This document shows, piece by piece, positions 3,028 through 18,834 of a stretch of 22,878 nt of DNA (positions within the stretch are counted from its first letter, which is position 1; the number at the start of each line of letters is the position of its first letter). The notes below the pieces were generated by a model. It was given only the letters and a program-made list of their open reading frames with translations. It ran no database searches and was not told where the DNA came from. The translations under genes and the position numbers were made by a program. Location: IMG/VR virus record IMGVR_UViG_3300005607_000302. One strand, given 5' to 3'. Origin of the DNA: a virus.

Positions 3028-3683
3028 TTCTTCTTCGGAGTCGCCTTCTTCGGTGTGGGAGCCGGAGCCGGCGCGGCCTCCTCTTCCTTCGGAGCAACGG
3101 GCGGAGCCTTGATGACCAACGTTTGGGTGATGGTCGCCATCAGCTTCGCGTCGTCCTTGGTCATCGGAGCGATGGAGATGACGGCGTATCCCATGTTGTT
3201 GGCGACGTCGACGGTGACGAAGACTCCGACGAAGACCCCCTTGTCGGTGAGGACTTGGGTGATGCTCGCTGGACGGTCCTTGAAGTCGCCAGCCTGGCGC
3301 TGGACATCGGTGACGGTGACGCCGTCGGGGACCATGTTCTCGACCGCCAACGACATGATCCTGACAAACACCTCCGGCGGAACGTCGTTGAGGGGCTGCG
3401 CTGCGACCTGGAGACGGGCGGGCTTCGTGGTCGCCGTCTTCGGCCGCTCCACGGTGACTCCCGATTCGCTGTCATCGCTGACTGTCCAGTCGCCGGGAAC
3501 GGTGATCGACCACGCTTGGTGATCGATGACCCTGGTCTCCGGGACCGGTGCCGGAGCGACTGCGGCCGGCGGCCGAACCATCGCGACGATCTCCGGCTTC
3601 GGGGGGACGGGTTGGGGCGGCGGCGCTGATGCGCCACACGCCGTGAGTGCGAGCGCCAGTGCGGCGACTGCGAAACGCTTCAT
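3024..3683 (-). CDS. Lipoprotein, 219 aa: signal peptide with lipobox LTAC-G, a Pro-rich linker, a globular domain and a Lys-rich C-terminal tail
   Basis: N-terminus is MKRFAVAALALALTACGASAPPPQP, a type II signal peptide with a lipobox. A GGAGGT RBS lies 7 nt upstream of the ATG. Pro/Ala-rich linkers are present. Confidence 0.65.
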   Translation of the reverse strand: MKRFAVAALALALTACGASAPPPQPVPPKPEIVAMVRPPAAVAPAPVPETRVIDHQAWSITVPGDWTVSDDSESGVTVERPKTATTKPARLQVAAQPLNDVPPEVFVRIMSLAVENMVPDGVTVTDVQRQAGDFKDRPASITQVLTDKGVFVGVFVTVDVANNMGYAVISIAPMTKDDAKLMATITQTLVIKAPPVAPKEEEAAPAPAPTPKKATPKKK

Positions 3684-3727
3684 GGGTGGAACCTCCAGAT
3701 CCTCACCCTACACCCCCACGCGAGCTG

Positions 3728-3982
3728 TTACACCTCGTCGCGAAGGTGCGCTTTCACTGCGAACCCACAGCGGCAGTTGAAGACTAGCCAGAAGCTGGCT
3801 GGAGAAGCCGTTATCGCTTTCGCTTGTGGGTGGGAGTCACCGCACCGGGGGCAGATGCCGTGGGTGATGTCGGTGATGAAGGGCAGGTCACGTGTCACAC
3901 GCTTGTGCTGGAGCATCCACAGCCGTGAAAGGATAGCGAGAACGACGAGGGTGGATACGACTAGGAGTACAAGTGGAGGCAT
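3728..3982 (-). CDS. Small membrane-anchored protein, 84 aa, with a CxxC...CxC zinc-ribbon-like C-terminal part
   Basis: N-terminal TM helix is MPPLVLLVVSTLVVLAILSRLW. Cys pairs are CPRCG and CRCG. Confidence 0.45.
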   Translation of the reverse strand: MPPLVLLVVSTLVVLAILSRLWMLQHKRVTRDLPFITDITHGICPRCGDSHPQAKAITASPASFWLVFNCRCGFAVKAHLRDEV

Positions 3983-3988
3983 CTAGAG

Positions 3989-4336
3989 TCAGATCTCGGT
4001 CCCACGCTTGTCGTCTTGGAGTGGGGGATCTGCCTGGGGGATTTGTTGGGTTGACGGAGGAGCGAAGAAGAACCTCGGGATTCGTCGGATCTCCTTTGCA
4101 ACGGGGCACCGACAGACGACGTTGCCGCTGACGATGTCCAGTTGCGTCCCTGGGGGACACGATGCCAGGATTTCCTCTCCATCATGAACTGTCACGACGA
4201 CTTCCTGGCACTGTGGGAGCGACACCGGCACTGGGTCGGGATCGTGCCCGAAGCTAACTATCACGCTCAGGGCCAGGCCCACGGCACTCGCCAGGACCAG
4301 CCCATCGGTCCACACCTTCGGGCGTTCCGTCCACAT
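3989..4336 (-). CDS. Secreted or membrane-anchored Cys-containing protein, about 115 aa. The track ORF extends to 4435; the ATG near 4336 (MWTERPK...) is favoured
   Basis: A hydrophobic signal-anchor 'GLVLASAVGLALSVIVSF' follows MWTERPKVWTD. The longer N-terminus would overlap the divergent gene at 4377. Confidence 0.4.
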   Translation of the reverse strand: MWTERPKVWTDGLVLASAVGLALSVIVSFGHDPDPVPVSLPQCQEVVVTVHDGEEILASCPPGTQLDIVSGNVVCRCPVAKEIRRIPRFFFAPPSTQQIPQADPPLQDDKRGTEI

Positions 4337-4376
4337 GCTCAATTCTGGCCCAATGCGGTAGAGTTCTACAAGACAC

Positions 4377-5204
4377 ATGACGGCAGCATTCACGATGTCA
4401 CGCCAGGAGGAGCCCTTTCTCCGTCTGTGGTGCAACTACTACTGCAGCGAACTCGGGGCGGAGAACGTCTGGGTTCTGGTCGAACCGGGGGACGAGACGG
4501 TAGAACCCGCCACGTCAAGGTGGCCTGGCATCCACGTTGTGGAGCTGCCCGCGCCCGATGGCCTAGCGTTCAACGAACGTTGGCGGACAGACATCGTGTG
4601 GGAGTGGCAGGGCAAGCTGCTCGGGTCGCGTTACAAGAGCGTCATCTTTTCGGACACAGATGAGCTACTGATCCCCAACGACGGGAAGACGTTGTTGCAG
4701 TACTGCCAACGGTTCGAGGTGCTCCGGACAGAGCCCTACCTGCGTGCGGTCGGTTGGAACGTCATCCAAGACGTTGACAACGAGCCGGCTTTTGAACGTG
4801 TCGACGGAGCACGCATCCTGGAACACCGCAAGTCGATGTGGCGGATGCCGAAGATGGACAAGACGCTGCTGGTCAAGCAGCAGACATCGTACTCTGGCGG
4901 GTTCCACCACGTCTGGGTCGCACGTGACAAGGGATGGAGGATCGAGGTCCCGCTGGAGGAGACGCTCGACCTGTGCCACCTCCAGCTGTTTGACTTGCAG
5001 GTCTACCTCGATCGTCACAAGCGACGTGAGATGACGATGCCTCCGCACCCCGACTACTACAACCGCATCTACACTTGCGGCGAAGTCGAAGAAGCAAAGA
5101 ACTACTTCCGGACCCACGAGGTCACGTGGGGACACGGCTCACCCATCCCATACGGGGACGAGAAACCGGTGCCCCAGCACTGGAAGGACAAGGTGGTGTA
5201 CTGA
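4377..5204 (+). CDS. Putative glycosyltransferase, 275 aa (GT-A fold, DxD motif 'IFSDTDELL')
   Basis: A hydrophobic beta-strand followed by 'SDTDE' is typical of nucleotide-sugar transferases. No TM segment. The family assignment is tentative. Confidence 0.5.
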   Translation: MTAAFTMSRQEEPFLRLWCNYYCSELGAENVWVLVEPGDETVEPATSRWPGIHVVELPAPDGLAFNERWRTDIVWEWQGKLLGSRYKSVIFSDTDELLIPNDGKTLLQYCQRFEVLRTEPYLRAVGWNVIQDVDNEPAFERVDGARILEHRKSMWRMPKMDKTLLVKQQTSYSGGFHHVWVARDKGWRIEVPLEETLDLCHLQLFDLQVYLDRHKRREMTMPPHPDYYNRIYTCGEVEEAKNYFRTHEVTWGHGSPIPYGDEKPVPQHWKDKVVY

Positions 5205-5908
5205 TGACGCTCCCTCTCGTGTCGATGTTGCTCCCCTGCCGGGGACGCTACGAGGGCACCAGACAATCCCTCGAGTCGTTGAAGCTGGCTACTGACCCGT
5301 CCCGGATCGAGGTTCTCGTGCGGTGCGACGATGACGACCCGCAGACAGCAGAGATCATGAAGGAGGAGTGGCCCTTCGTGACCAAGACCTTCGTCGGACC
5401 CAGGGGCAACGGCTATGCAGACCTGCATCACATGTACAACCAGCTGGCGGCTGAAGCCGCTGGGACGTTCCTGTTCCTGTGGAACAACGATGCCGTCATC
5501 CAGACACCCGGTTGGGACGACAAGCTGGTTCCGTTTGACGATGGGAAGCTACGCTACTTCCACGTCAGAGTGACGCCCGATGACCAGATCCTCAGCTTCC
5601 CGATCGTCCACAGGTCGTACCAGGACTGCCTCGGCCGCTACAGCGCCTGGGCCCACAACGACTCCTACGTCCATGCGGTGCTCCAACCGTTCTTCAGCCA
5701 GGGAGTCTACCAGGACGTTGACATCCACGTCCACCACCTGATCAACGACTACCTCGCCGCTGGAGATGCTCCTTCCGTCGAAGGGCGGTCGAAGTGGAGC
5801 GTGACGCGTCCCGTGCGGCGCACCGCCGAGTACCAGCAGGAGCTGCAGCGTGACCGGGAGAAGGTCGCTCAGTGGTTGGCTCGTTCAGCACATCGCAGTG
5901 AAGCCTGA
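5204..5908 (+). CDS. Putative GT2-like glycosyltransferase, 234 aa. The start is placed at ATG 5204, which overlaps the upstream TGA by 1 nt (the track ORF starts at 5075)
   Basis: 'VSMLLPCRGRYEG...IEVLVRCDDDD' resembles the GT2 N-terminal 'VSVIIPTYNR...EIIVVDDGS' pattern. 'LWNNDAVI' is a DxD-like segment. Confidence 0.5.
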   Translation: MTLPLVSMLLPCRGRYEGTRQSLESLKLATDPSRIEVLVRCDDDDPQTAEIMKEEWPFVTKTFVGPRGNGYADLHHMYNQLAAEAAGTFLFLWNNDAVIQTPGWDDKLVPFDDGKLRYFHVRVTPDDQILSFPIVHRSYQDCLGRYSAWAHNDSYVHAVLQPFFSQGVYQDVDIHVHHLINDYLAAGDAPSVEGRSKWSVTRPVRRTAEYQQELQRDREKVAQWLARSAHRSEA

Positions 5909-6098
5909 GCCACCAGTCGGGTAGGATCACCAGCCTGTTGTTGGTGAGAAGCAACACTTCGCTGGAGCTGGCAAAGACGCCGCCCGTCGAGATAACCAAC
6001 GCCTGGGTACCTTCGACGAGGATCAACTCCATGTTCCACTCCTTGTATGGGTGGGTGAGCTTGATCAGGTCACCGGGCAACAGGTCGGGGGCAGCCAC
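5742..6098 (-). CDS. Small protein, PGD-V family (MAAPDLLPGDLIKLTHPYKEW), 118-aa ORF. The C-terminal roughly 50 aa are low-complexity and antisense to the 3' end of the GT gene
   Basis: GTG start at 6098 carries the family motif. The 3' 166 nt overlap the convergent gene at 5204-5908. Confidence 0.45.
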   Translation of the reverse strand: MAAPDLLPGDLIKLTHPYKEWNMELILVEGTQALVISTGGVFASSSEVLLLTNNRLVILPDWWLRLHCDVLNEPTTERPSPGHAAAPAGTRRCAARDASRSTSTALRRKEHLQRRGSR

Positions 6099-6142
6099 GA
6101 TCGGAGTGTACTACTGACGTCACTGATGTACCTTCTCGCGAG

Positions 6143-6550
6143 ATGGAGCTGACTCTAGAGGGACCGACCACTGCACACGCTTCGGGGAACTTGACAGTCG
6201 AGCTCCCGCGGTACATGATCCCACTCGAACCCGAGGAGATGCATGACTCCCGGACGGCTCCCAACAAGGCTCAGCTTGCGCTGGCAGCGGGTCGCCATCC
6301 CAACGGGAACATCATGTTTATCACCGGGGACGGTACCATCCACGAGATCGACTGCCAGAAGCAGGGCGACCTCCCGAAGGGTGCAGTCTACCCGATCGAC
6401 AACGGCCTGACCATCGTCATCTTGCACCCGGGCCACAAGCCCTTCGAGATCGCCACGGATTGGGCGTTGGAGAACTCCAGCACCCTCCTGAGCGCAGGGG
6501 TCATGGTTGCTACCACAAAAGGGCGCCGGATCACCTATGTAGATGAGTGA
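6143..6550 (+). CDS. Hypothetical protein, 135 aa
   Basis: Strong GC3 bias in this frame compared with the antisense ORF at 6155-6559. No motif recognised. Confidence 0.55.
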   Translation: MELTLEGPTTAHASGNLTVELPRYMIPLEPEEMHDSRTAPNKAQLALAAGRHPNGNIMFITGDGTIHEIDCQKQGDLPKGAVYPIDNGLTIVILHPGHKPFEIATDWALENSSTLLSAGVMVATTKGRRITYVDE

Positions 6551-6834
6551 AGACCACACTACGCGAGCTGCGCCAAGAGATCCGGAGGTTGCTCCGCGAG
6601 TTCGGTGTCGACGATGACAACCGGTATTCAGCAGGCTTCTTCATGGACGGAGGCGGTGCCGGCTTTGGCGGAGAGACCAACCGCAGCCGCGAGAACAGCG
6701 TGATGAACCCACCCCCAGGATTGGGTGGACCCGAAGACGAAGAAGGAGACAATGGCGAAGAACAAGAGAAGGGGCAACCAGGCGTACGAGTCTACGACCA
6801 CAGCGGAGGTCAGGGAGGACCGCCTGGAGTTTGA
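6547..6834 (+). CDS. Hypothetical protein: an N-terminal basic helix 'LRELRQEIRRLLREFG' followed by a Gly/Pro/Asp-rich low-complexity tail. Its 3' end overlaps infA by about 80 nt
   Basis: GTG start overlaps the upstream TGA (GTGA). The N-terminal motif resembles that of the ORF at 16776/16803 ('LRKLLREVG'). Confidence 0.35.
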   Translation: MKTTLRELRQEIRRLLREFGVDDDNRYSAGFFMDGGGAGFGGETNRSRENSVMNPPPGLGGPEDEEGDNGEEQEKGQPGVRVYDHSGGQGGPPGV

Positions 6835-7021
6835 GGGCAACGTTGTCGAGGCGATGCCCGGCACGCTCTTCAAAGTGCAGACCACGATGGGCAACACCGT
6901 CATCTGCACGTTGGGCGGCAAGATGAGGATCAACAGGATCCGCCTGTTGCCCGGGGACAGGGTGACCATCGAAGTGTCGCCCTACGATGTGACCAAGGGC
7001 CGAGTCACCTGGAGGCATTGA
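6752..7021 (+). CDS. infA: Translation initiation factor IF-1 homolog (S1-like OB fold), 89 aa
   Basis: 'EGNVVEAMPGTLFKVQTTMGNTVICTLGGKMRINRIRLLPGDRVTIEVSPYDVTKGRVTWRH' aligns with bacterial IF-1 'EGTVLE.LPN.MFRVELENGH.V.AHISGKMRKNYIRIL.GDKV.VELTPYDLSKGRI..R'. An AAGGAG RBS lies 4-5 nt upstream of ATG 6752. Confidence 0.8.
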   Translation: MAKNKRRGNQAYESTTTAEVREDRLEFEGNVVEAMPGTLFKVQTTMGNTVICTLGGKMRINRIRLLPGDRVTIEVSPYDVTKGRVTWRH

Positions 7022-7889: not shown

Positions 7890-8408
7890 GTGAGGAAGAT
7901 CGAGAAAATTGCGGCTGCTTGCGTATCATGTCAAACAACGATGTGGATACGTCCACGTCAAATCGGACATCGAAAATACTGTTCACGTAAATGCAAGAAC
8001 AAAGCCATGAGCGTACCTGGCGGGATCAACCATTGGCTCACTCCCAAGACCTGCGAGATCTGTCAACAATCCTTCATGGCCAAGGACTGCCGCGGACGTT
8101 TCTGCAAGACATGCGTCCCTGACGGAACGTGGTTGAGCATCGCTCAACACTACGGGTTGTCGAAAGCTGCGTATGAGTTGTTGGTCGAAGCGCAAGGCAA
8201 CCGTTGCAAGATCTGTGGCGTGCAACCCACCGGCAGTCATCACTTCAAGCGCCTCCACGTTGACCACAACCACATCACTGGCGAGGTCCGTGGCCTCCTC
8301 TGCCCGAAGTGCAACTCGACGGTTGGGTTCGTCGAGACTCACGATAACATCGACGAAGTCGTTGCCTACCTCAAGCGTGAATCCCGACCGCTTCGCTTGG
8401 TAGGATGA
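7890..8408 (+). CDS. HNH endonuclease of the Endonuclease VII family, with an N-terminal Cys4 zinc finger
   Basis: 'HVDHNHITGEVRGLLCPKCN' matches the Endo VII HNH signature. N-terminal CxxC...CxxxC is present. Lower GC than the flanks. It is a paralog of the gene at 13879-14298. Confidence 0.8.
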   Translation: MRKIEKIAAACVSCQTTMWIRPRQIGHRKYCSRKCKNKAMSVPGGINHWLTPKTCEICQQSFMAKDCRGRFCKTCVPDGTWLSIAQHYGLSKAAYELLVEAQGNRCKICGVQPTGSHHFKRLHVDHNHITGEVRGLLCPKCNSTVGFVETHDNIDEVVAYLKRESRPLRLVG

Positions 8409-8412
8409 ACGT

Positions 8413-8586
8413 ATGAGCCGGGTCCGTATCTTCGCCCTGTGGGCGCTCGCTGCAGTTACGGGGGTCACGTGCTACCGCTTGTTCAGCCAACACCGGACTG
8501 AAGAGATCGCAGTCGTTGTCTGGATGCTCCTGATGGTGGTCTGGTTCCACCACGAGGACTGGCTCGGCGATAGTTACAGAGCATGA
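8413..8586 (+). CDS. Small membrane protein, 57 aa, two hydrophobic segments
   Basis: MSRVRIFALWALAAVTGVTCYRLF...VVVWMLLMVVWFHHEDW. Its stop TGA overlaps the ATG of the next gene (ATGA). Confidence 0.4.
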   Translation: MSRVRIFALWALAAVTGVTCYRLFSQHRTEEIAVVVWMLLMVVWFHHEDWLGDSYRA

Positions 8587-8771
8587 AGAAGCTCTTCACG
8601 GCGTTCGTCGTAGCGATTACCCTGGTCGGGTGCTTGTCAACGGCGAACATCAAGCCGCTGCCGCCCGGTGCGAAAGCCTGTGGCGGTCCTGCGGACTGCC
8701 CCGTCGGGTACTACTGCGGGTTCCCTGGCGTTGACACCTACGCGCAGTGCCTACCCTACCGTCGCTACTGA
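8583..8771 (+). CDS. Small Cys-rich lipoprotein, 62 aa (lipobox LVGC, then four more Cys)
   Basis: Signal peptide MKKLFTAFVVAITLVGC. The mature part is 'ACGGPADCPVGYYCGF...QC'. Confidence 0.55.
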   Translation: MKKLFTAFVVAITLVGCLSTANIKPLPPGAKACGGPADCPVGYYCGFPGVDTYAQCLPYRRY

Positions 8772-8780
8772 GAGAACAAC

Positions 8781-8996
8781 ATGAACACCGCACGTCTTAT
8801 GGGCGCGATCTTCAGCCTGGTCCTCTGCCTGAGCATGACCGCCCTCGCTGTCTACAGCCTCTTCTGGACGAAGGTCCCGCTGCTGATGCCCGTTGCCACG
8901 GGCGGCATCGCTGCCATCGCCGGTGCCATGGTCGTCATGAACGACTGGCCCAAGGTGTGGAAGCCGCTGCTCACTGGCCAGACGCCTCCGCAGTGA
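8781..8996 (+). CDS. Small membrane protein, 71 aa, two TM helices
   Basis: Hydrophobic segments are 'MGAIFSLVLCLSMTALAVYSLFW' and 'GGIAAIAGAMVVM'. A GAGAGAA purine tract lies upstream. Confidence 0.5.
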   Translation: MNTARLMGAIFSLVLCLSMTALAVYSLFWTKVPLLMPVATGGIAAIAGAMVVMNDWPKVWKPLLTGQTPPQ

Positions 8997-10005
8997 GAAG
9001 CTGAAGTTGTGAGAGAACTGCATCGCGTGGTTTCGTGGTCTCACCCTCGATCCACAAGGGGGCTTGTTGTCCGACTTTTGCTGCGCGGCGAGCTTGTGAA
9101 ACATCACCTAGCTTGAACAACGACATCCAAGCCAGGTCCCAATAGAAATTGGCGATGTCAGGGCGTTGATGCATCAACGGTTTGACGTACTCCCACGTTT
9201 CCTGGTACTTTCCTTGCAACATCAGAGATCGTGCCGCCCTGAGTGCCGCCATGATCTCAAGGTTCGTTCCCAGGCGCGCGACTTGATTGAAGTATGCGAA
9301 CGCCTCGGCGAATTGTTGCCTGACGAACAACTCGTCGCCCAGGTGAAACTTCAAAACGACCTGGTCTTCACCTGGTTTGCAACCATCTCTCTCCCAACGT
9401 TGCAACATGCGTAGGTTCCGATCGTTATGTGCATTACGTCCCCCTCCCGACAAGTGCCTGACTCGAACTTGATCAGAGACTTGGTGTGGACACGTGTGGA
9501 TGTCACCGTGGCAACACGCAATCGACTCGTGGATGGGGTTGTTCCAACGCCACCCATGATCACGGTGAATGAAACGGGGGTGCTTCAGCGTTTGAATGCA
9601 CCGACCCTCACACCACGTATAGTCGTACCACATCCAGATGCTGAAACACGGTTCGCCTTCTCGACGTTTCTCAGCCTCTTCTACGATGTTGAGTACGTGT
9701 TGCCACCCAGCATCTAGAGTGTCGTCAGTGTGGAGCCACAGTCTCCAGGGTCGGGTCGCAAGGGCATATGCCTCGTTGTGAACCTCGGCAAAACTCCGGA
9801 GCAGCCCATCTTCGTGGATCAGATCGGGTCGCAGCGAGACGATGTCAGCGCCCGCTTCCTTGGCAACCTCGGGCGATCCATCGTCAGACATCGTATCAAC
9901 GACGACAATCTCTCTGACCCAAGGGCGAGCCTCGGTCACCAACCGCCTGACGTTGTCACGGTCGTTCCGACAGGGGATGATCAGCGAGACGTCTGCTCGT
10001 GACAC
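8971..10005 (-). CDS. Glycosyltransferase family 2 domain fused to a C-terminal TPR-like helical domain, 344 aa
   Basis: 'SLIIPCRNDRDN...VVVDTMSDDGSPE...LHTDDTL' gives the GT2 signature with a DxD motif. The C-terminal half has TPR-like amphipathic repeats. It is a paralog of the gene at 11115-12131. Confidence 0.75.
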   Translation of the reverse strand: MSRADVSLIIPCRNDRDNVRRLVTEARPWVREIVVVDTMSDDGSPEVAKEAGADIVSLRPDLIHEDGLLRSFAEVHNEAYALATRPWRLWLHTDDTLDAGWQHVLNIVEEAEKRREGEPCFSIWMWYDYTWCEGRCIQTLKHPRFIHRDHGWRWNNPIHESIACCHGDIHTCPHQVSDQVRVRHLSGGGRNAHNDRNLRMLQRWERDGCKPGEDQVVLKFHLGDELFVRQQFAEAFAYFNQVARLGTNLEIMAALRAARSLMLQGKYQETWEYVKPLMHQRPDIANFYWDLAWMSLFKLGDVSQARRAAKVGQQAPLWIEGETTKPRDAVLSQLQLLTAEASGQ

Positions 10006-10157
10006 GTTTCTTCCTTGTCCAACCGGCGGCGGGCACGCCGGACACGTTTCTTGGCGTGCCGTTTGCCTTTGCGGTGGGTCTCGTTCATCCGGTCACGATC
10101 CCAGGCATCTGATGTCTTGGCTTTCGCCTTCTTCTTGGCGCGGTCAGCTTGACTCAT
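9981..10157 (-). CDS. Small highly basic protein, 58 aa (Lys/Arg-rich). Its ATG overlaps the upstream TGA (ATGA)
   Basis: MSQADRAKKKAKAKTSDAWDRDRMNETHRKGKRHAKKRVRRARRRLDKEE... It is translationally coupled to the gene at 10154-10537. The track lists a GTG-extended version at 10181. Confidence 0.4.
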   Translation of the reverse strand: MSQADRAKKKAKAKTSDAWDRDRMNETHRKGKRHAKKRVRRARRRLDKEETCHEQTSR

Positions 10158-10537
10158 CGTAGGTGAGCGCAGTCTGGACACGGCTGCATCGGTCCATCGG
10201 GGTGATCGGGCGTCCAGAAGCTATGTGAAGCGAACCCGCAGGAACACAGCTTGCCCGAGCTGTGACAGCGTTTGCAGACGACGAAGGGACGATCGTCAGG
10301 CGTGTCCTTCCTGGGACGGTGCATCCGGTGGAGGACGTTCCACTCCCAGTGCCACTTGACGTTGCCCTTGAACCCGTAGACCATCAGCAGGTAGTGGCTG
10401 CCAATGACACGGTTGCTGTCACGGCCGTCGCGGTACTGGTCCTCGCGGGTCAGCCAGACGAGACACGGCTTGCTAACGTAGAGAGGATCGTGTTTGATGA
10501 ACGGGTTGCGGATCGCGAGCAGGACCTTGTGTGACAT
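10154..10537 (-). CDS. Hypothetical Cys/His-rich protein, 127 aa. An alternative GTG start lies at 10549
   Basis: High GC3. C-terminal 'CKRCHSSGKLCSCGF...CPDC' suggests metal binding. Confidence 0.55.
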   Translation of the reverse strand: MSHKVLLAIRNPFIKHDPLYVSKPCLVWLTREDQYRDGRDSNRVIGSHYLLMVYGFKGNVKWHWEWNVLHRMHRPRKDTPDDRPFVVCKRCHSSGKLCSCGFASHSFWTPDHPDGPMQPCPDCAHLR

Positions 10538-10540
10538 GGC

Positions 10541-10570
10541 GCCTGCCACTGATTTTACTCAATGGCAGGC
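10541..10570 (-). other. Perfect 8-bp inverted repeat (GCCTGCCA N14 TGGCAGGC) immediately 5' of the ATG at 10537
   Basis: Seen directly in the sequence. It lies in the 42-nt gap between two minus-strand genes, and no U-tract follows it. Confidence 0.3.
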
Positions 10571-10591
10571 AACGTTCATTACGTTAGAACG

Positions 10592-11047
10592 TTAGTTGCG
10601 AATGAAGGCCCAAATCTTGGCAGTCGGACTGCCAGATGGAAAGGCCATCAGAGTTGTGCTAGGTCCAGGCGGATAAGCATCTCCATCATCAGAAGGACGA
10701 GTGAAGAGGAAACGTCCGACAAGGTTCTCAGAAGGTACGCCAGTTCCCATCGAACCTGCGATAGCTCCCATTACGAAGAAACCAGCCGATGAGGGAGTTC
10801 CACCCCCAGATGTCGGGCTGCTAGCGAAACCCACAGTCTTGTCGTAGACTTCGGCATAGACCGCAGCGACGTAGCCTCCCATTCCGAGTTCGCCACCATC
10901 GACAGCAAAAGCTGTCGTGGGTGAATCGGGTGTCAGCTCAATGCTAACAACCGTAGTGTAGTTGATGCTGTCAAGAAAGTTCACCGTGTCAAGCGGTGCG
11001 CCGTCAGGCTGCCAAGAAAGACTGCCAGTGATTGAAAGTTGATCCAT
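10592..11047 (-). CDS. Hypothetical protein, 151 aa, Gly/Ser/Thr-rich. The region is AT-richer than the flanks
   Basis: ORF with an AAGGAGA RBS 6 nt upstream. Composition differs from its neighbours. Confidence 0.55.
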   Translation of the reverse strand: MDQLSITGSLSWQPDGAPLDTVNFLDSINYTTVVSIELTPDSPTTAFAVDGGELGMGGYVAAVYAEVYDKTVGFASSPTSGGGTPSSAGFFVMGAIAGSMGTGVPSENLVGRFLFTRPSDDGDAYPPGPSTTLMAFPSGSPTAKIWAFIRN

Positions 11048-11114
11048 TCAGTGTCTCCTTGTGAGGACACCCAGAACGACGGTTCTGAACGTTGATCCTC
11101 ACCACTTCATGGTA

Positions 11115-12131
11115 TCAAATCAAAGGCTTGTGTACACTTTTCAGTCGTTCAATGACGTGATCACGAAACTTCGTAGTTTCGCCTTCAATCTGCGTGGTTG
11201 CTTTCGTTGATGCATTCATCATGTGGGCCGCCATTGGCAGGTCGCCAACCAACGTGCATATGTACGCAGCATCCCAATAGAAGTCCGCGATGTGTGGGGC
11301 GGCATGGTAGAACGGTCGCAAGTACGCCTGCTGTTCTCGGAGCTTTCCCTGGAACATCAGGCATCGACCCGCGTTCAAGACACATGACACTTGCAACGGG
11401 TTTGCTGTCCCCGCCGCACGATTGAAGTACTCGAATGCTACTTCGTACTGTTGTCGAGTGCAGTACTCGGCACCCAAGTAGAAGTACAGGGAATCAGGAT
11501 CTTCTTTGGGCCCGTCTTCAGCTTCCCAATGCAACAGGATCCGAAGGTTACGATCGCTGGTGTTGCGTGAACTCTGCGACAGGTGGATGACTCGCAACGT
11601 CTCGTCCACAATCACGGGTTCGTCGCCCTGTCCACAGACCAAGCGTTCGTGGACGGGCTTCATCCAACGCCAGAAATCATCTTTGTGCGTCAAGCGAGTT
11701 CGGAGGAGCGAGACGAGACATTTGCTCCTGTCTTCCGACCATGCATAGTCATACCAGAGGTTCACGCTGAGCCCCCACTGGTTCTGCAACCGAGCCTCGG
11801 AAGCTCTGCGAACCAGCGTTGGCAACAACGACCAGTCGCTCAACGTGTCATCGGTGTCCAACCAGAGTTGCCACGGTTTCGTAGCGAGCTTGTATGACTC
11901 GTTCCGTGCCAGAGCAAAGCTCTTGATGATCCCGTCTTCTCGTAGTAGACCTGGACGTTCGACAACAACGTCAGCACCTGCTGACTTGGCAGCTCCGGCT
12001 GAACCGTCGGTCGAACCCGTGTCAACGATGACAATCTCGTCGACCCAAGGTCGAGCCTCTCTCACCAACCGCACCAGGTTCTCACGATCGTCGCGGTTGA
12101 TGATGCAGAGTGACAGTCCCTCTTGGACCAT
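11115..12131 (-). CDS. Glycosyltransferase family 2 domain plus a C-terminal TPR-like domain, 338 aa; paralog of the gene at 8971-10005
   Basis: 'SLCIINRDDREN...IVIVDTGSTDGS...LDTDDTL'. Colinear similarity with the other GT2-TPR gene runs over the full length. The start TGATG overlaps the stop of the phosphatase gene. Confidence 0.75.
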   Translation of the reverse strand: MVQEGLSLCIINRDDRENLVRLVREARPWVDEIVIVDTGSTDGSAGAAKSAGADVVVERPGLLREDGIIKSFALARNESYKLATKPWQLWLDTDDTLSDWSLLPTLVRRASEARLQNQWGLSVNLWYDYAWSEDRSKCLVSLLRTRLTHKDDFWRWMKPVHERLVCGQGDEPVIVDETLRVIHLSQSSRNTSDRNLRILLHWEAEDGPKEDPDSLYFYLGAEYCTRQQYEVAFEYFNRAAGTANPLQVSCVLNAGRCLMFQGKLREQQAYLRPFYHAAPHIADFYWDAAYICTLVGDLPMAAHMMNASTKATTQIEGETTKFRDHVIERLKSVHKPLI

Positions 12132-12904
12132 CAGTACGTCCCCACTCCTCGGTCTTGGTCGATGATGATCAGCTTGCGGTCGTGGTTGCCGCGCCGGTCC
12201 ATGTCCTTCTGGTCGTGCTTACCCCGTCCCTTGACGGAAACGAGCTGGTTGTCAGGCAGCACGTAGGCCCACAGCTCCAGGCCGAAACAGGCGCCGCCGT
12301 CGAGGCCCAGCACCTTGTCGGTGATCAGCGGCTTGTTGAGGACGCTGTGGCCGAAAGCAATGCGCTCAGGCCCGTTCCAGAAGTGGTGCCAGAAGTGCCA
12401 TCCTTCTTCGCCGGGTGGAATACGGCTCGGCCACATCGACTTCTCTTCGGGCGGCCTGATGCTCTGGATGTGGAGCAGGTGCCTGTCGGTCTGCTTCTCG
12501 ATCGGGCGACCCGGAAAGACGCCCGCATGGACAGCGACGAGGTTGTGTTCAGGGAAGCGCAGGAACTTGGGCATCGCCCGCATGTAGTCGTAATGGTGCG
12601 ACTTCAACTGGCGCCGGGTCTCGATGTGGGTCTCGATGTCGACGTTGACGTGGCCCTTGCGTGCCTTGATGTCCTCGTAGAAGAGGTGCTTCTCCTCGTG
12701 GTTGCCGAGGATGCAGGCGGGTTTCCCCTGTCTCATCTCGAGGCGCATCGCCAGGTCGACACAGCCGGCGCTGTCAGGACCGCGGTCGATCAGGTCGCCC
12801 AAGAAGAGGACGTGATCCTCTGGGCGTGCCTGGCACTTGTCCAGCAGCTCTTCGGCTTCCTTCAGGCAGCCGTGCAAATCCCCAACGAGAATCAGTCTCC
12901 CCAT
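12131..12904 (-). CDS. Metallophosphoesterase / PPP-family Ser/Thr protein phosphatase (lambda-PPase/ApaH-like), 257 aa
   Basis: Signature motifs GDLHG, GDLIDRG and GNHE occur in the canonical order. Confidence 0.8.
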   Translation of the reverse strand: MGRLILVGDLHGCLKEAEELLDKCQARPEDHVLFLGDLIDRGPDSAGCVDLAMRLEMRQGKPACILGNHEEKHLFYEDIKARKGHVNVDIETHIETRRQLKSHHYDYMRAMPKFLRFPEHNLVAVHAGVFPGRPIEKQTDRHLLHIQSIRPPEEKSMWPSRIPPGEEGWHFWHHFWNGPERIAFGHSVLNKPLITDKVLGLDGGACFGLELWAYVLPDNQLVSVKGRGKHDQKDMDRRGNHDRKLIIIDQDRGVGTY

Positions 12905-12919
12905 GATGGGGAGATAGTA

Positions 12920-13084
12920 CTACTTCTCTGCCCGGTGGTCAGCGAGGCACGTTTGCTCTGATTCCGTCCCACAGTGCGGACAGGTGACCGTCACCTTGCA
13001 CTTCTTGTGGTGGCCCTCGTAGAACCAGGTGCCGATCAACCAGACGAGGATCGCAGCGTCCAGGACCGCAGTGAGAGCTTCCAT
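12920..13084 (-). CDS. Small membrane protein, 54 aa, with a C-terminal CxxC...C zinc-ribbon-like motif. Its ATG overlaps the upstream TGA
   Basis: MEALTAVLDAAILVWLIGTWFYEGHHKKCKVTVTCPHCGTESEQTCLADHRAEK. GC3 is high. Confidence 0.4.
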   Translation of the reverse strand: MEALTAVLDAAILVWLIGTWFYEGHHKKCKVTVTCPHCGTESEQTCLADHRAEK

Positions 13085-13437
13085 CAGTTCACCGCCAGGC
13101 GGTTCGTCGGCGGTGCGATGTCTCGGCTGAGGTCGATCCCTTTGTTGGGGGTGTTGAACGTTGCATCGAACTCGATGACCTGCAGCGGCTCCGGCGGGAA
13201 CTCGTCCAGGCGCCAGCCCGGGCCCTCCAGATGCTCGCGGCCCTTGGGCACGCCGAACTCCGGCAGCGTCTCACGTTCGAAGATGTCATCGTCGTCCAAC
13301 ATCGTGACGTCGGACTCGCTGGCGAGCTGGGGCAGTGCACCCTTCGGCTTCGTCCCCCACTTGCCGACGACGTACGCCAGCCACATGAAGCCAGCAAGGT
13401 AGAGCCACACCTGCACGCGGTCAATGAACTTCTTCAC
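13084..13437 (-). CDS. Membrane-anchored protein, 117 aa (N-terminal TM helix, acidic soluble domain). GTG start overlaps the upstream TGA
   Basis: VKKFIDRVQVWLYLAGFMWLAYVVGKW..., then 'MLDDDDIFERETLPEFG'. A GGGAGAG RBS is present. GC3 is very high. The track lists a fused, longer ORF to 13827. Confidence 0.55.
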   Translation of the reverse strand: MKKFIDRVQVWLYLAGFMWLAYVVGKWGTKPKGALPQLASESDVTMLDDDDIFERETLPEFGVPKGREHLEGPGWRLDEFPPEPLQVIEFDATFNTPNKGIDLSRDIAPPTNRLAVN

Positions 13438-13733
13438 GTTGTCTCTCCCATGGCGATCACGTGGTGGTGACCCTTGTTGACCCACACCAGCTCGAACGTA
13501 GTCCCGGGAGGCAGTGGGTTGGACGGTGCGAACGGAAACTCGAGGACGACATCGGTGTTGTTCTGGCCCGACATCGCCTTGATGTGGACGGGCCACGGGT
13601 GAGCACGCTGGCTCGGCGCCAGCAGCTGGAGGTGATCGCCCAAACGTGGCCTGTGATCGTGCTGGTGGAAGTGGTGCGACGACCACTGCAGCTTTGCGGA
13701 CACGATTGCTGGGACGGGGAGGGCGACTGCCAT
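13434..13733 (-). CDS. Hypothetical His-rich protein, 99 aa (SSHHFHQHDH...KGHHHV)
   Basis: ATG at 13733. High GC3. It is the first gene of a long leftward operon. Confidence 0.55.
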   Translation of the reverse strand: MAVALPVPAIVSAKLQWSSHHFHQHDHRPRLGDHLQLLAPSQRAHPWPVHIKAMSGQNNTDVVLEFPFAPSNPLPPGTTFELVWVNKGHHHVIAMGETT

Positions 13734-13741
13734 GGTTGTAC

Positions 13742-13774
13742 GTATACTCCCATACACGAGTGTATACTGCCATA
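13742..13774. promoter_or_regulatory. Tandem 13-bp direct repeat GTATACTCCCATA / GTATACTGCCATA, 20-bp period, in the AT-rich divergent intergenic region. Candidate operator or promoter element
   Basis: Seen in the sequence. Each repeat contains the palindrome GTATAC. It sits between the divergent starts at 13733 (-) and the HNH gene (+). Confidence 0.3.
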
Positions 13775-13878
13775 GTATGCTTGAACGCCCATGGCATGCA
13801 CTTGCTTTTGAGCAGTACGTCACTCACAATTGTTCACTCAGCGAAACGTTACGTTGCTTGCATGATGCGGGTTTCAAG

Positions 13879-14298
13879 ATGACTCGCACTCCACTTCGAC
13901 AATTCTTGTTGAATCGCGGTGTGCTTCGCCCCAACACTCATGGTGGGTGGATGTGTGTGAAACGAAAACCGCGACAATGTGAGTACTGTCATAACGAGTA
14001 CGTGCCTGTTTCACGTACGCAACGTTGGTGTAAGACCTGTTGTCCTACTCGAAAAGATGCAGGTAGAATGTCAACATATGGGCTAACAATCTCAGCCTTC
14101 AACGAGATGATGCTTCGCTCTAATGGACGATGCGAAATTTGCGGGGAATGTTTTTCTGATGTTCCTTGTATCGACCATGATCATGTCACCAAGCGCGTAA
14201 GAGGTTTGCTCTGCACACAGTGCAACTTGCGATTGGGACATGTTGAAGTAGGACCAGACTGGTATGTCAAAGCAGCCGCGTATCTCCAACGAGCGTGA
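13879..14298 (+). CDS. HNH endonuclease, Endonuclease VII family, with an N-terminal zinc finger. Start is uncertain; the track ORF begins at 13732
   Basis: 'IDHDHVTKRVRGLLCTQCNLRLG' is the Endo VII HNH signature. Upstream Cys pairs are CEYC and CKTCC. Low-GC patch. Confidence 0.75.
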   Translation: MTRTPLRQFLLNRGVLRPNTHGGWMCVKRKPRQCEYCHNEYVPVSRTQRWCKTCCPTRKDAGRMSTYGLTISAFNEMMLRSNGRCEICGECFSDVPCIDHDHVTKRVRGLLCTQCNLRLGHVEVGPDWYVKAAAYLQRA

Positions 14299-16290: not shown

Positions 16291-16797
16291 GTGACTTGGC
16301 ACGTTTACGTTGACTGGACGCTTGAGGAGACGCCTCGACCATTTTACGTGGGAAAGGGCACTCCAGATCGTCTTCGAAAGAAGCAACGTAACATCGTTCA
16401 CTCTCGCATCGCGAAAAAGTACGGCATGCGACGCGAGGTTGTGTTGACAACTGATGTTGAGCGTCAAGCGCTTGATGTCGAAGTTCAACTCATTCAAGAA
16501 CATCGCACGTTTGTGGACGGCGGTACTGGTTGGTGGGGCGCCAATCTTACGTTGGGTGGCGAGGGCGTTTCGGGCACACACATCAACAAGGGTCGAACGT
16601 TCAGCGCCGAACATCGTCAAAAACTCAGTCAAGCTCGTCGTGGCAGGGCGCCTTGGAACAAAGGACAGCAAAACGTCTACACGGATGAAGCCCTTGCCAA
16701 GATCAAGAAAGCACGTTCACGTCAAGTCACATCAACGGAAACGAAGCAGAAGATTGCTGACGGTGTCCGTCGTTCATGGAGCAAACGATGCGACTGA
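16291..16797 (+). CDS. GIY-YIG homing endonuclease (I-TevI/Seg-like, with a NUMOD3-like motif)
   Basis: 'WHVYVDWTLEETPRPFYVGKG' is the GIY-YIG motif. 'SAEHRQKLSQARRGRAPWNKG' is NUMOD-like. Low GC. Paralog of the gene at 1011-1532. Coordinates are taken from the ORF track. Confidence 0.85.
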   Translation: MTWHVYVDWTLEETPRPFYVGKGTPDRLRKKQRNIVHSRIAKKYGMRREVVLTTDVERQALDVEVQLIQEHRTFVDGGTGWWGANLTLGGEGVSGTHINKGRTFSAEHRQKLSQARRGRAPWNKGQQNVYTDEALAKIKKARSRQVTSTETKQKIADGVRRSWSKRCD

Positions 16798-16802
16798 CAA
16801 TG

Positions 16803-17117
16803 GGACAGCTTCGAAAACTTCTGCGTGAAGTAGGGGCAAATAATTCGTGGCCGGGCCAGCCGTATGGTCGGAGCGTGACATCGCCCGACATCAACTCACG
16901 CGAACAGCTGGGCGCGATCTCGGCGAAGGCTATCGACACCGTGGCAGACCCGGACGGTCTGCCCGATCACCTGCTCGAACCCCAGGTGGACCCCGAGGAC
17001 TGCTTTGGTCCCGTTCCACCCGATGCAGAGCCCCCGTACGTGGGGCAAGATCCCTTCGCTCGGGACGTCAGCCCGAACCCGACTGGCACCATCAAGCGCG
17101 GTCCTACGCGCGTCTGA
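16803..17117 (+). CDS. Hypothetical protein (about 104 aa from ATG 16803; the track ORF starts at 16776). The N-terminal 'QLRKLLREVG' helix is followed by a Pro/Asp-rich tail
   Basis: It follows the GIY-YIG stop directly. The N-terminal motif resembles that of the ORF at 6547. Confidence 0.45.
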   Translation, partial: GQLRKLLREVGANNSWPGQPYGRSVTSPDINSREQLGAISAKAIDTVADPDGLPDHLLEPQVDPEDCFGPVPPDAEPPYVGQDPFARDVSPNPTGTIKRGPTRV

Positions 17118-18066: not shown

Positions 18067-18834
18067 CTAGCTCCTAGAGGCTGCCGCGGTCCTTCCTATC
18101 AGGGGCAGCGTCAGCACCTCGTAACCCGTCTCAGTCACCAGCACCGTGTGTTCGAACTGCGCTGACAACGAGCCATCGACGGTACGAACCGTCCACTGGT
18201 CAGCGTCGATCGTGATGTCGGCAGTGCCCAGGTTGATCATGGGCTCGATTGTGAACGTCATGCCAGGGACCAGGATGGGCCCGCCGGTGTGAGCGAAGTG
18301 GTTGACGTGGAGCTTGTTGTCATGGAAGATGCGGCCGATGCCGTGGCCACCGAACTCCCGGACCACGCTGCACCCGTTGACGTTGGCCAGGCGTTGGATC
18401 TCGTTACCCACTGCATTGAGGGGTGCACCCGGTTTGACTTGTTGGATGCCAGCCAACATCGCTGAGTGGGTGACAGTGATCAACCTCATCGCCTCATCTG
18501 AGACCCGTCCGACAGCGACGGTGGCGTTGCAGTCGCCGAAGTGGCCGTCCAGGATCGTCGTCACGTCGATGTTGACGATGTCGCCTTCCTTGAGGACGTA
18601 GGGACCCGGGATGCCGTGACAGACCACGTCGTTGACGCTGGTGCAGCAGGACTTGGGAAAGCCTCGATAGTTGAGGGGCGCCGGGCGGCCTCCCCTTCTC
18701 ACTGTGTCATTGTGGACGATCCGGTCGATGTCTGCTGTCGTCATCCCCGGCCTCACCGAGGTGCAGGCGAGGTGCAGGGTCTGGGCCGCGTGGCGGCAGG
18801 CGGCACGCATCTTGGCGATGTCTATGGGTTGCAT
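18067..18834 (-). CDS. map: Methionine aminopeptidase, type I
   Basis: 'VCHGIPG', 'GDIVNIDVT', 'REFGGHGIG', 'GMTFTIEPM' and 'SAQFEHTVLVT' are colinear with E. coli MetAP. The metal-ligand residues D, D, H, E, E are all present. Confidence 0.9.
   Translation of the reverse strand: MQPIDIAKMRAACRHAAQTLHLACTSVRPGMTTADIDRIVHNDTVRRGGRPAPLNYRGFPKSCCTSVNDVVCHGIPGPYVLKEGDIVNIDVTTILDGHFGDCNATVAVGRVSDEAMRLITVTHSAMLAGIQQVKPGAPLNAVGNEIQRLANVNGCSVVREFGGHGIGRIFHDNKLHVNHFAHTGGPILVPGMTFTIEPMINLGTADITIDADQWTVRTVDGSLSAQFEHTVLVTETGYEVLTLPLIGRTAAASRS

Follow-up and report, generated by a model that had tools for sequence, protein, structure and literature searches.

Several glycosyltransferases (GTs) that act on proteins or peptides have been characterised in bacteria. 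GmaR O-GlcNAcylates the flagellin of Listeria, and its tetratricopeptide repeat (TPR) domain, a protein-protein interaction scaffold, has been proposed to recognise flagellin (PMC9638930). SunS, GccA and EnfC glycosylate ribosomal peptides (PMC12457901). Here, we analyse a virus-derived stretch of 22,878 nucleotides, the IMG/VR record IMGVR_UViG_3300005607_000302 (in the following “the window”), which corresponds to the reverse complement of positions 12-22889 of the ENA metagenome contig ERZ27279671 k141_609427 (32,878 bp) and has a G+C content of ~60%. Its minus strand holds an array of nine co-directional open reading frames (ORFs), among them two paralogous genes that combine a GT family 2 (GT2) domain with TPRs. 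With moderate confidence, we read the window as part of the genome of an uncultivated huge (jumbo-class) phage, which encodes a pair of paralogous GmaR/SunS-type enzymes that glycosylate proteins in the cytoplasm, the other genes of the array being mere neighbours.

The first of the two proteins, GT2-TPR copy 1 (11115..12131), has 338 residues, with a GT-A domain at ~1-190 and three TPRs at ~212-317; copy 2 (8971..10005) has 344 residues. Both pass the cut-off of the GT2 family PF00535 (23.3 bits), copy 1 with 27.9 and copy 2 with 30.1 bits. Among solved structures, the GT domain of GmaR is the best match to the single sequence of copy 1 (1.2e-6), and a profile of 26 family members retrieves GmaR at 6e-33, SunS at 5e-19 and ThuS at 5e-13. 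Profile positions 212-317 (the C-terminal 105) match consensus TPR proteins at ~1e-11 to 1e-12 per three-repeat unit, and also the TPRs of OGT/SPINDLY; the TPR assignment is significant by profile, the Pfam TPR matches of either single sequence being below threshold. The AlphaFold2 model of copy 1 (mean predicted local distance difference test score, pLDDT, 93.9) shows alternating beta/alpha elements over residues 6-183, followed by helices over 194-333. When this model is compared to the PDB by Foldseek, the top matches are GT-A enzymes throughout, headed by SunS and ThuS (E 1e-14 to 4e-12, template-modelling (TM) score 0.56-0.64, ~300-400 alignment columns); generic GT2 enzymes follow at ~4e-6, about eight orders behind. 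Ten residues (D37, T38, S40, D42, D94, D95, H161, E162, R194 and N195) are invariant in all 26 aligned sequences, both copies included. Copy 1 has all acidic residues of the motifs VDTGSTDGS and LWLDTDDTL (D37, D42, D92, D94 and D95), and its D92-x-D94 aligns with the DAD of GmaR. The two genes are thus real paralogs, as a first-pass annotation of the sequence had proposed; their catalytic residues are kept, one change in copy 2 excepted. Since the nearest solved relatives, GmaR and SunS/ThuS, act on proteins or peptides, the best-supported interpretation of these comparisons is that both copies would be cytoplasmic protein glycosyltransferases, which use the GT-A domain for donor and metal and the TPR domain for the acceptor.

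The paralogs share 47% identity (E = 2e-97), which is unevenly distributed: 50% in the catalytic half and 39-41% in the TPR half. A neighbour-joining tree groups both copies with P0002, a protein from a 2.3-kb contig, in one subclade, where copy 2 sits on the longer branch; the duplication therefore appears to be lineage-specific. The stronger divergence of the TPR half fits the earlier proposal that the paralogs have distinct acceptor specificities. In copy 2, the first motif reads VDTMSDDGS and the second LWLHTDD, the DxD thus being H-T-D-D; it is the sole sequence of the 26 with a His in the D92 column and keeps every other invariant family residue. Its closest relative in a set of 5.8 billion proteins is at most 39% identical. 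His can ligate metals; copy 2 may be a neofunctionalised enzyme that uses another metal or donor, or else a decaying or regulatory copy. Most likely, judged from these sequence differences, the paralogs differ in acceptor, donor or metal use.

These features suggest the following mechanism: the N-terminal GT-A domain would bind a nucleoside diphosphate (NDP)-sugar and a divalent metal via VDTGSxD and D-x-D-D, and H161-E162 of the same domain, together with R194-N195 at the start of the helical half, would complete the active site. The three-repeat TPR domain would dock the protein acceptor, of which a Ser, Thr or Cys side chain would become glycosylated; GT2 chemistry is inverting. The lineage-specific duplication would have been followed by divergence mainly in the TPR half and by the exchange of DxD for HxD in copy 2, which may alternatively have acquired a reduced or regulatory role. 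The likeliest acceptors are most likely encoded by the phage itself: virion components, a vault-like homolog of the major vault protein (MVP) or ORF151, a small protein encoded between the two GT genes (the latter two are discussed below).

In database searches, ~20 relatives with 36-47% identity were found, all in metagenomes; the more distant ones (24-34% identity) comprise unnamed metagenomic proteins as well as GT2+TPR proteins from spore-forming Firmicutes. Among 50,697 deposited phage genomes, neither a near-identity DNA search nor a tblastn search with copy 1 (E <= 1e-5) gave a match. In IMG/VR, a scan with the single GT protein likewise gave no match, and an alignment-based scan was needed, which detected a relative of the GT domain on 362 contigs, many of them 200-470 kb long. 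The GT-A+TPR family is thus common in large uncultivated phages, and its solved relatives all act on proteins or peptides. The architecture is already covered by PHROG 13126 (phrog_13126; 2e-20 for copy 1 and 1.6e-9 for copy 2).

Several points weigh against a role in protein glycosylation. Copy 2 may be inactive, as its DxD lacks the first Asp, a residue that all other aligned sequences keep. In the material examined, no tested function was found for viral members of the GT2+TPR family. The ranking of SunS and ThuS in the fold comparison partly mirrors the shared two-domain architecture and not the type of substrate. The contig covers ~33 kb of a genome that is probably much larger, and genes for sugar-nucleotide synthesis or base hydroxymethylation may lie elsewhere in it. 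Finally, the Firmicute relatives (25-33% identity) are located by spore-germination genes or in a cluster of sugar-biosynthesis and GT genes, a context that would also fit glycan or polymer synthesis. Among the nearest cellular homologs, that of Paenibacillus (L008, 8001-9071) lies beside a gerA-type spore germination operon, and that of Peribacillus (L009, 8001-9098) lies inside a sugar-nucleotide/GT cluster that includes a second GT2-TPR gene (16544-17098). These surroundings hint at spore-surface glycosylation for the bacterial branch of the family.

Accordingly, one may ask whether the phage enzymes act on a non-protein glycan or envelope polymer (teichoic acid, capsule or a spore-surface-like polysaccharide), either to change the surface of the host for superinfection exclusion or to build a glycan that is extended by further GT-A-like genes of the window. 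The clustering of the Peribacillus homolog with sugar-nucleotide biosynthesis genes and additional GTs speaks for this view, as do the polymer GT2 enzymes TarS, RmlT and heparosan synthase among the secondary fold matches of copy 1. Two adjacent plus-strand genes at 4377-5908 could provide the extending enzymes: that at 4377-5204 encodes the motif SDTDE and has a sub-threshold match to Glyco_tranf_2_4, and that at 5204-5908 encodes CDDDD...NND and matches phrog_14945, annotated as “glycosyltransferase”, at 2e-5. A sequence search of the PDB with these two gave no match, and their family matches are below threshold; given the motifs and these weak matches, the window may hold four glycosyltransferase-like genes. 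However, neither GT2-TPR copy has a transmembrane or obvious membrane-anchoring segment, the profile relation to GmaR, SunS and ThuS is far stronger than that to polymer GTs, and the TPR domain is canonical. We therefore regard a polymer acceptor as unlikely. Of the “protein or polymer glycosylation” suggested in the first-pass annotation, the protein part agrees with the characterised relatives, which modify proteins or peptides, whereas the profile link to polymer enzymes is far weaker.

The array itself extends on the minus strand, with all genes head to tail, from 13733 (or 13643) down to 8971. It encodes six small proteins and a PPP-type phosphatase in addition to the two GT2+TPR proteins. 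The earlier gene-by-gene description proved accurate: all nine ORFs are at the places given, and their composition and physical properties agree. The first gene (13434..13733) encodes a His-rich small protein of 99 residues, 11 of them His, with a G+C content at third codon positions (GC3) of 0.80. Its start is ambiguous: the source annotation begins at TTG 13643, which yields 69 residues, and ATG 13733, which yields 99, is preceded by GGGAG but lies within a CCATGG shared with ATG 13732 of a divergent endonuclease VII (EndoVII) gene. It is followed by an orphan acidic protein (13084..13437; 117 residues, isoelectric point (pI) 4.7), whose N-terminal part is hydrophobic over residues 8-26, by a 54-residue Cys4 membrane peptide (12920..13084), which has an N-terminal hydrophobic helix and a possibly zinc-binding C-x5-C-x2-C-x7-C pattern, and by the phosphatase (12131..12904; 257 residues). 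Downstream of copy 1 follow ORF151 (10592..11047; 151 residues, acidic, rich in Ser, Thr, Gly and Pro, G+C 0.53, GC3 0.48, with an AAGGAG ribosome-binding site), an orphan Cys/His-rich protein (10154..10537; 127 residues, 7 Cys, C-terminal CxxC...CxC...CxxC, GC3 0.78), an orphan highly basic ORF (9981..10157; 58 residues, pI 11.2) and copy 2.

Neighbouring genes overlap at five of the eight junctions (GTGA at 13434-13437, TGATG at 13084, TGATG at 12131, ATGA at 10154-10157 and 25 nt at 9981-10005), which confirms the earlier statement that most of them do; the remaining three are gaps of 15 nt before the phosphatase gene and of 67 nt and 54 nt on either side of ORF151. At its 3' end, the array converges with the plus-strand gene 8781-8996, which overlaps copy 2 by 26 nt, and at its 5' end it diverges from the EndoVII gene (13732-14298). 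Copy 1, ORF151 and copy 2 are compositional outliers, with a G+C content of 0.53-0.56 as compared to 0.59-0.64 for the other six genes. The GT orthologs in other loci are no outliers within their own locus. The low G+C of the two GT genes and ORF151 fits a relatively recent acquisition or exchange.

The first-pass annotation had considered the array a candidate glycosylation or modification module. Six related loci (L002-L005, L007 and, from IMG/VR, L010), searched with all window proteins, do not bear this out: as far as the array genes beside it are concerned, the GT alone recurs. In L005 and L010, an ortholog of the phosphatase (62% identity) lies at a distance of ~5 kb and ~8 kb, respectively, from the GT, and in L002-L004 there is none up to 10 kb away from it. 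None of the six loci has a homolog of the His-rich, acidic, Cys4, Cys-rich or basic protein. An all-against-all BLAST of the genes flanking the GT showed these to be mostly unrelated, with one conserved downstream neighbour pair (L004/L005) that is absent from the window, and a scan of metagenome contigs added one informative locus (L091), which has no further gene in common with the window. Since the GT alone recurs, the phosphatase is distant or absent and the small proteins are absent in the relatives, the array looks like a densely packed mosaic block of a large phage and not like a conserved glycosylation pathway.

One could nevertheless envisage the whole array as a dedicated module, in which the phosphatase acts on an intermediate or acceptor that carries phosphate and the small metal-binding and basic proteins serve the two GTs as cofactors or substrates. 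The tight packing with its five overlapping junctions would be in line with such a module, and so would the low G+C common to copy 1, ORF151 and copy 2 as compared to the other six genes; some local linkage is, moreover, indicated by a 6-kb relative contig in which a Metallophos gene directly precedes an ORF151 homolog. Against these stand the five small proteins without homologs near the GT, the distant or missing phosphatase and the mostly unrelated flanking genes in the relatives. The phosphatase is, furthermore, of a type that is common in phages lacking the GT and is not a sugar-phosphate or polyprenyl-phosphate phosphatase. A dedicated module is thus improbable in our view.

The phosphatase scores 60.6 bits with PF00149 (Metallophos; cut-off 21.5 bits, 3.6e-16) and contains the complete set of PPP motifs: GDLHG, GDLIDRG, GNHE, VHAG and GH. 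It had been described as lambda-PPase-like. The PPP family and a NinI-like match (phrog_246, 9e-32) would fit this label, but lambda PPase (1g5b), like PrpA/B, aligns to residues 5-72 only. The best PDB match is 2qjc, a putative diadenosine tetraphosphate (Ap4A) hydrolase of T. brucei (5e-28, residues 2-227). The protein thus resembles ApaH-like/NinI-like PPP enzymes in its metal-binding motifs and in the full-length match to 2qjc, and differs from the equivalogs ApaH, PrpE, Pnkp and PrpA/B, for all of which it falls below the NCBIfam cut-offs (for ApaH, 91.5 vs 176 bits with NF001204 and 46.4 vs 222.85 bits with TIGR00668). Homologs with 26-28% identity occur in Sinorhizobium, Vibrio and Escherichia phages, with further matches in Staphylococcus and Caulobacter phages, and enzymes of this type are common in unrelated phages without a GT2-TPR gene. 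It is best described as a predicted ApaH-like/NinI-like PPP enzyme, candidate substrates of which are a phosphoprotein, dinucleoside tetraphosphates (Np4N) or capped RNA. The suggestion that it removes a priming phosphate found no backing, no tie of this type to sugar priming having been found. Its start codon is spanned by a perfect 9+9-nt palindrome, TCTCCCCAT N ATGGGGAGA (12896-12914), and a small hairpin predicted at this site (z = -2.1) would make the ATG inaccessible.

The family of ORF151 is real but very small, with four relatives of 42-56% identity and of conserved length. Its model (pLDDT 63, i.e. low confidence) is a predicted beta-sandwich with generic jelly-roll/cupin matches only. 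One homolog lies on a contig without a GT. Another immediately follows a Metallophos gene, no GT separating the two; in its 6-kb contig (JGI 3300047160, homolog P0107), a Metallophos gene, the ORF151 homolog and a 132-aa gene follow each other. As the order in the window is the same apart from the GT, the comparison suggests that copy 1 was inserted into a phosphatase-ORF151 pair. ORF151 may be regarded as a candidate acceptor of glycosylation. As an established acceptor it was rejected: the model is of low confidence, the fold matches are generic and the homologs do not adjoin GTs.

For the other small proteins, comparisons were less informative. The His-rich, acidic and basic ORFs have no family match in Pfam and PHROGs scans, nor have the His-rich and basic ones in an NCBIfam scan. 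The 54-residue peptide (Kyte-Doolittle maximum 1.87 at residues 3-21) has sub-threshold matches to YnfU, DUF7577 and Phage_zn_bind_8, and the 127-residue protein has a sub-threshold match to GRXCR1-2_C only. When the nine array proteins were compared to the PADLOC models of defence systems, no match was found.

Two small Cys-rich ORFs within an array that also encodes SunS-like enzymes call to mind a phage-borne, glycocin-like cluster for a ribosomally synthesised and post-translationally modified peptide, in which the GT would S- or O-glycosylate the 54-residue Cys4 peptide or the C-terminus of the 127-residue protein, the product being a glycopeptide with an antibacterial or signalling function. 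In structure, SunS and ThuS match best, and SunS, which is encoded on the SPbeta prophage, is prophage-encoded according to its PDB molecule name as well. Glycocin clusters comprise a leader-bearing precursor, a C39-protease/ABC exporter and thiol-disulfide oxidoreductases (PMC12457901). Matches to ABC_tran, Peptidase_C39 or thioredoxin/DsbB-type families are, however, absent from the scanned ORFs and from the precomputed contig annotations. The two small proteins space their Cys residues in the CxxC zinc-knuckle manner, whereas glycocins have nested Cx6C pairs; the Cys peptides are not conserved beside the GT in any relative, and GmaR is closer than SunS by sequence. A glycocin cluster was rejected, its defining components not being found in the window, and we consider it extremely unlikely.

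Phage GTs are classically known for the glycosylation of DNA, and according to literature cited in PMC12619734, hypermodification of DNA is carried out by diverse GTs of viruses. In the window, the very basic 58-residue ORF precedes copy 2, and the GTs might glycosylate hydroxymethylated phage DNA as a protection against host restriction, with the basic protein as a DNA-binding accessory. The nearest characterised relatives, in contrast, act on proteins or peptides, and the TPR domain is a protein-protein scaffold. A hydroxymethylase or another base-modification gene was not found within the 22.9-kb window, and the basic ORF is an orphan without a match to a DNA-binding family; nothing in these results points to the DNA-modification role that the first-pass annotation had left open. 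DNA glycosylation, whose defining components were not found in the window, was rejected; it appears highly unlikely.

Whether the array is transcribed as one unit was judged from its layout. Because of the tight gene packing, a single transcript from 13733 to 8971 is plausible. The single transcriptional unit proposed earlier agrees with the nine co-directional genes, with the overlaps and with a consensus scan that showed no excess of terminators (3 terminator-like sites vs 4.7 expected from shuffled sequence; promoter-like sites likewise not above shuffled), but strong hairpins flank ORF151. The spacer between ORF151 and the Cys-rich gene (10538..10591, minus strand) contains two adjacent hairpins (inverted repeats I1 and I3) and folds with a minimum free energy of -30.5 kcal/mol (z = -6.25), none of 200 shuffles being as stable; the 12-bp stem of the second hairpin ends 3 nt before the next ATG and has no U-tract. 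These hairpins might serve in RNA processing, as a stabiliser or in the control of translation. The spacer upstream of ORF151 (11048-11114) folds with z = -2.5, and RNA processing or attenuation around ORF151 is possible. Scans of the window for tRNAs and Rfam families gave no match. For the palindrome AACGTT, the window has 12 sites vs 4.2 expected, a count reached by none of 100 shuffles; the sites include 10571, 10588, 11088 and 13845, four being located in non-coding spacers or in the region upstream of the array.

Outside the array, the window encodes, on the plus strand, the C-terminus of a Cpn60/GroEL-type chaperonin (2-469) and an IF1-like protein (6752-7021; eIF-1a domain, 2.7e-21), and on the minus strand an M24 methionine aminopeptidase (18067-18834; 4e-49). 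The latter is 60-65% identical in the relatives and directly follows the GT in L007. These three genes stand for protein-synthesis and folding functions that are unusual for phages. Three small plus-strand genes converge on copy 2: 8413-8586 and 8781-8996 encode hydrophobic proteins of 57 and 71 residues, respectively, and 8583-8771 encodes 62 residues, a putative lipoprotein with a hydrophobic leader that ends in LVGC and with further Cys residues. Endonuclease VII/NUMOD3 genes (plus strand) are located at 13732-14298 (EndoVII), 8007-8408 and 16291-16797, including two EndoVII paralogs that are 35% identical. Their GC3 is ~0.5 for 13732-14298 and 16291-16797 and 0.64 for 8007-8408, as compared to ~0.75-0.9 for the neighbours, which suggests that they are mobile, homing-type endonucleases.

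At the end of the window, the minus strand encodes the C-terminal half of an MVP homolog (21533-22876; MVP_shoulder 2.8e-30, Vault_3), which is cut by the contig end, and immediately downstream of it a 651-residue SPFH/Band-7 protein (19504-21459), for which no homolog was found in the related loci fetched. The MVP-like protein measures ~900 residues in relatives, and its matches in the phage collection are exclusively uncultured huge phages of 462-735 kb. In three related loci, the gene is a close neighbour of the GT, in either order: in L005, MVP (3654-6353) precedes the GT with a 75-nt gap, in L010 the GT precedes MVP (11110-13833) with an 81-nt gap, and in L004 the GT and MVP (2-625) are 1.4 kb apart. 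In the window, the distance is 9.4 kb, on the same strand. Based on this neighbourhood, the GT2-TPR enzymes might glycosylate the vault-like protein of the phage, by which this clade of huge phages would produce a sugar-coated vault-like shell or compartment during infection, a proposal that is tentative and on the whole improbable; the duplicated copies would then add different sugars or target different sites or partners. Inherited synteny among the related loci can explain much of the adjacency of GT and MVP.

Among the known systems, GmaR, the flagellin O-GlcNAc transferase and MogR anti-repressor of Listeria monocytogenes, is the closest in design: a GT2 (GT-A) domain is followed by a TPR domain, the match covers essentially the whole 204-residue GT-domain chain, and the DxD(D/E) and His-Glu motifs align. 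GmaR differs in having 637 residues, with an extra linker and anti-repressor domains that bind MogR (PMC9638930), whereas the phage proteins end after three TPRs and have no flagellin or MogR context in the window. The glycocin S-glycosyltransferases SunS and ThuS likewise join a GT-A domain to a helical-repeat domain for substrate binding and act on a ribosomal peptide. They differ in sequence (14-17% identity), and the phage genes are not accompanied by a precursor peptide, a C39/ABC exporter or a thiol-disulfide oxidoreductase; specificity for Cys as opposed to Ser/Thr cannot be inferred from the likeness. With regard to role, documented protein glycosylation by bacteriophages is confined to few systems. 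The closest precedent are mycobacteriophage GTs, which decorate phage structural proteins (Freeman et al. 2023, as cited in PMC12619734). The analogy is confined to role, and the window contains no structural genes. If it is true that the GTs described here decorate virions or intracellular phage assemblies, they could influence how huge phages recognise their hosts and evade immunity or defence, and how stable the particles are.

The same architecture is present in viral GT2+TPR-like proteins of the BFVD (TM score 0.63-0.75 and 13-21% identity among phage and giant-virus models): on the phage side, in uncultured Caudovirales, Synechococcus phage S-SRM01 and Dickeya phage JA29, and among giant viruses, in pitho-, cedrat-, marseille- and klosneuviruses. 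The GT2+TPR kind is thus known and widespread in viruses. Compared to these systems, the two genes would represent a plausible, fairly ordinary viral glycosylation function, for which the sequence provides a sound annotation, and not a new kind of system; what the locus adds is a paralog pair that constitutes a natural experiment in acceptor or donor divergence, DxD versus HxD.

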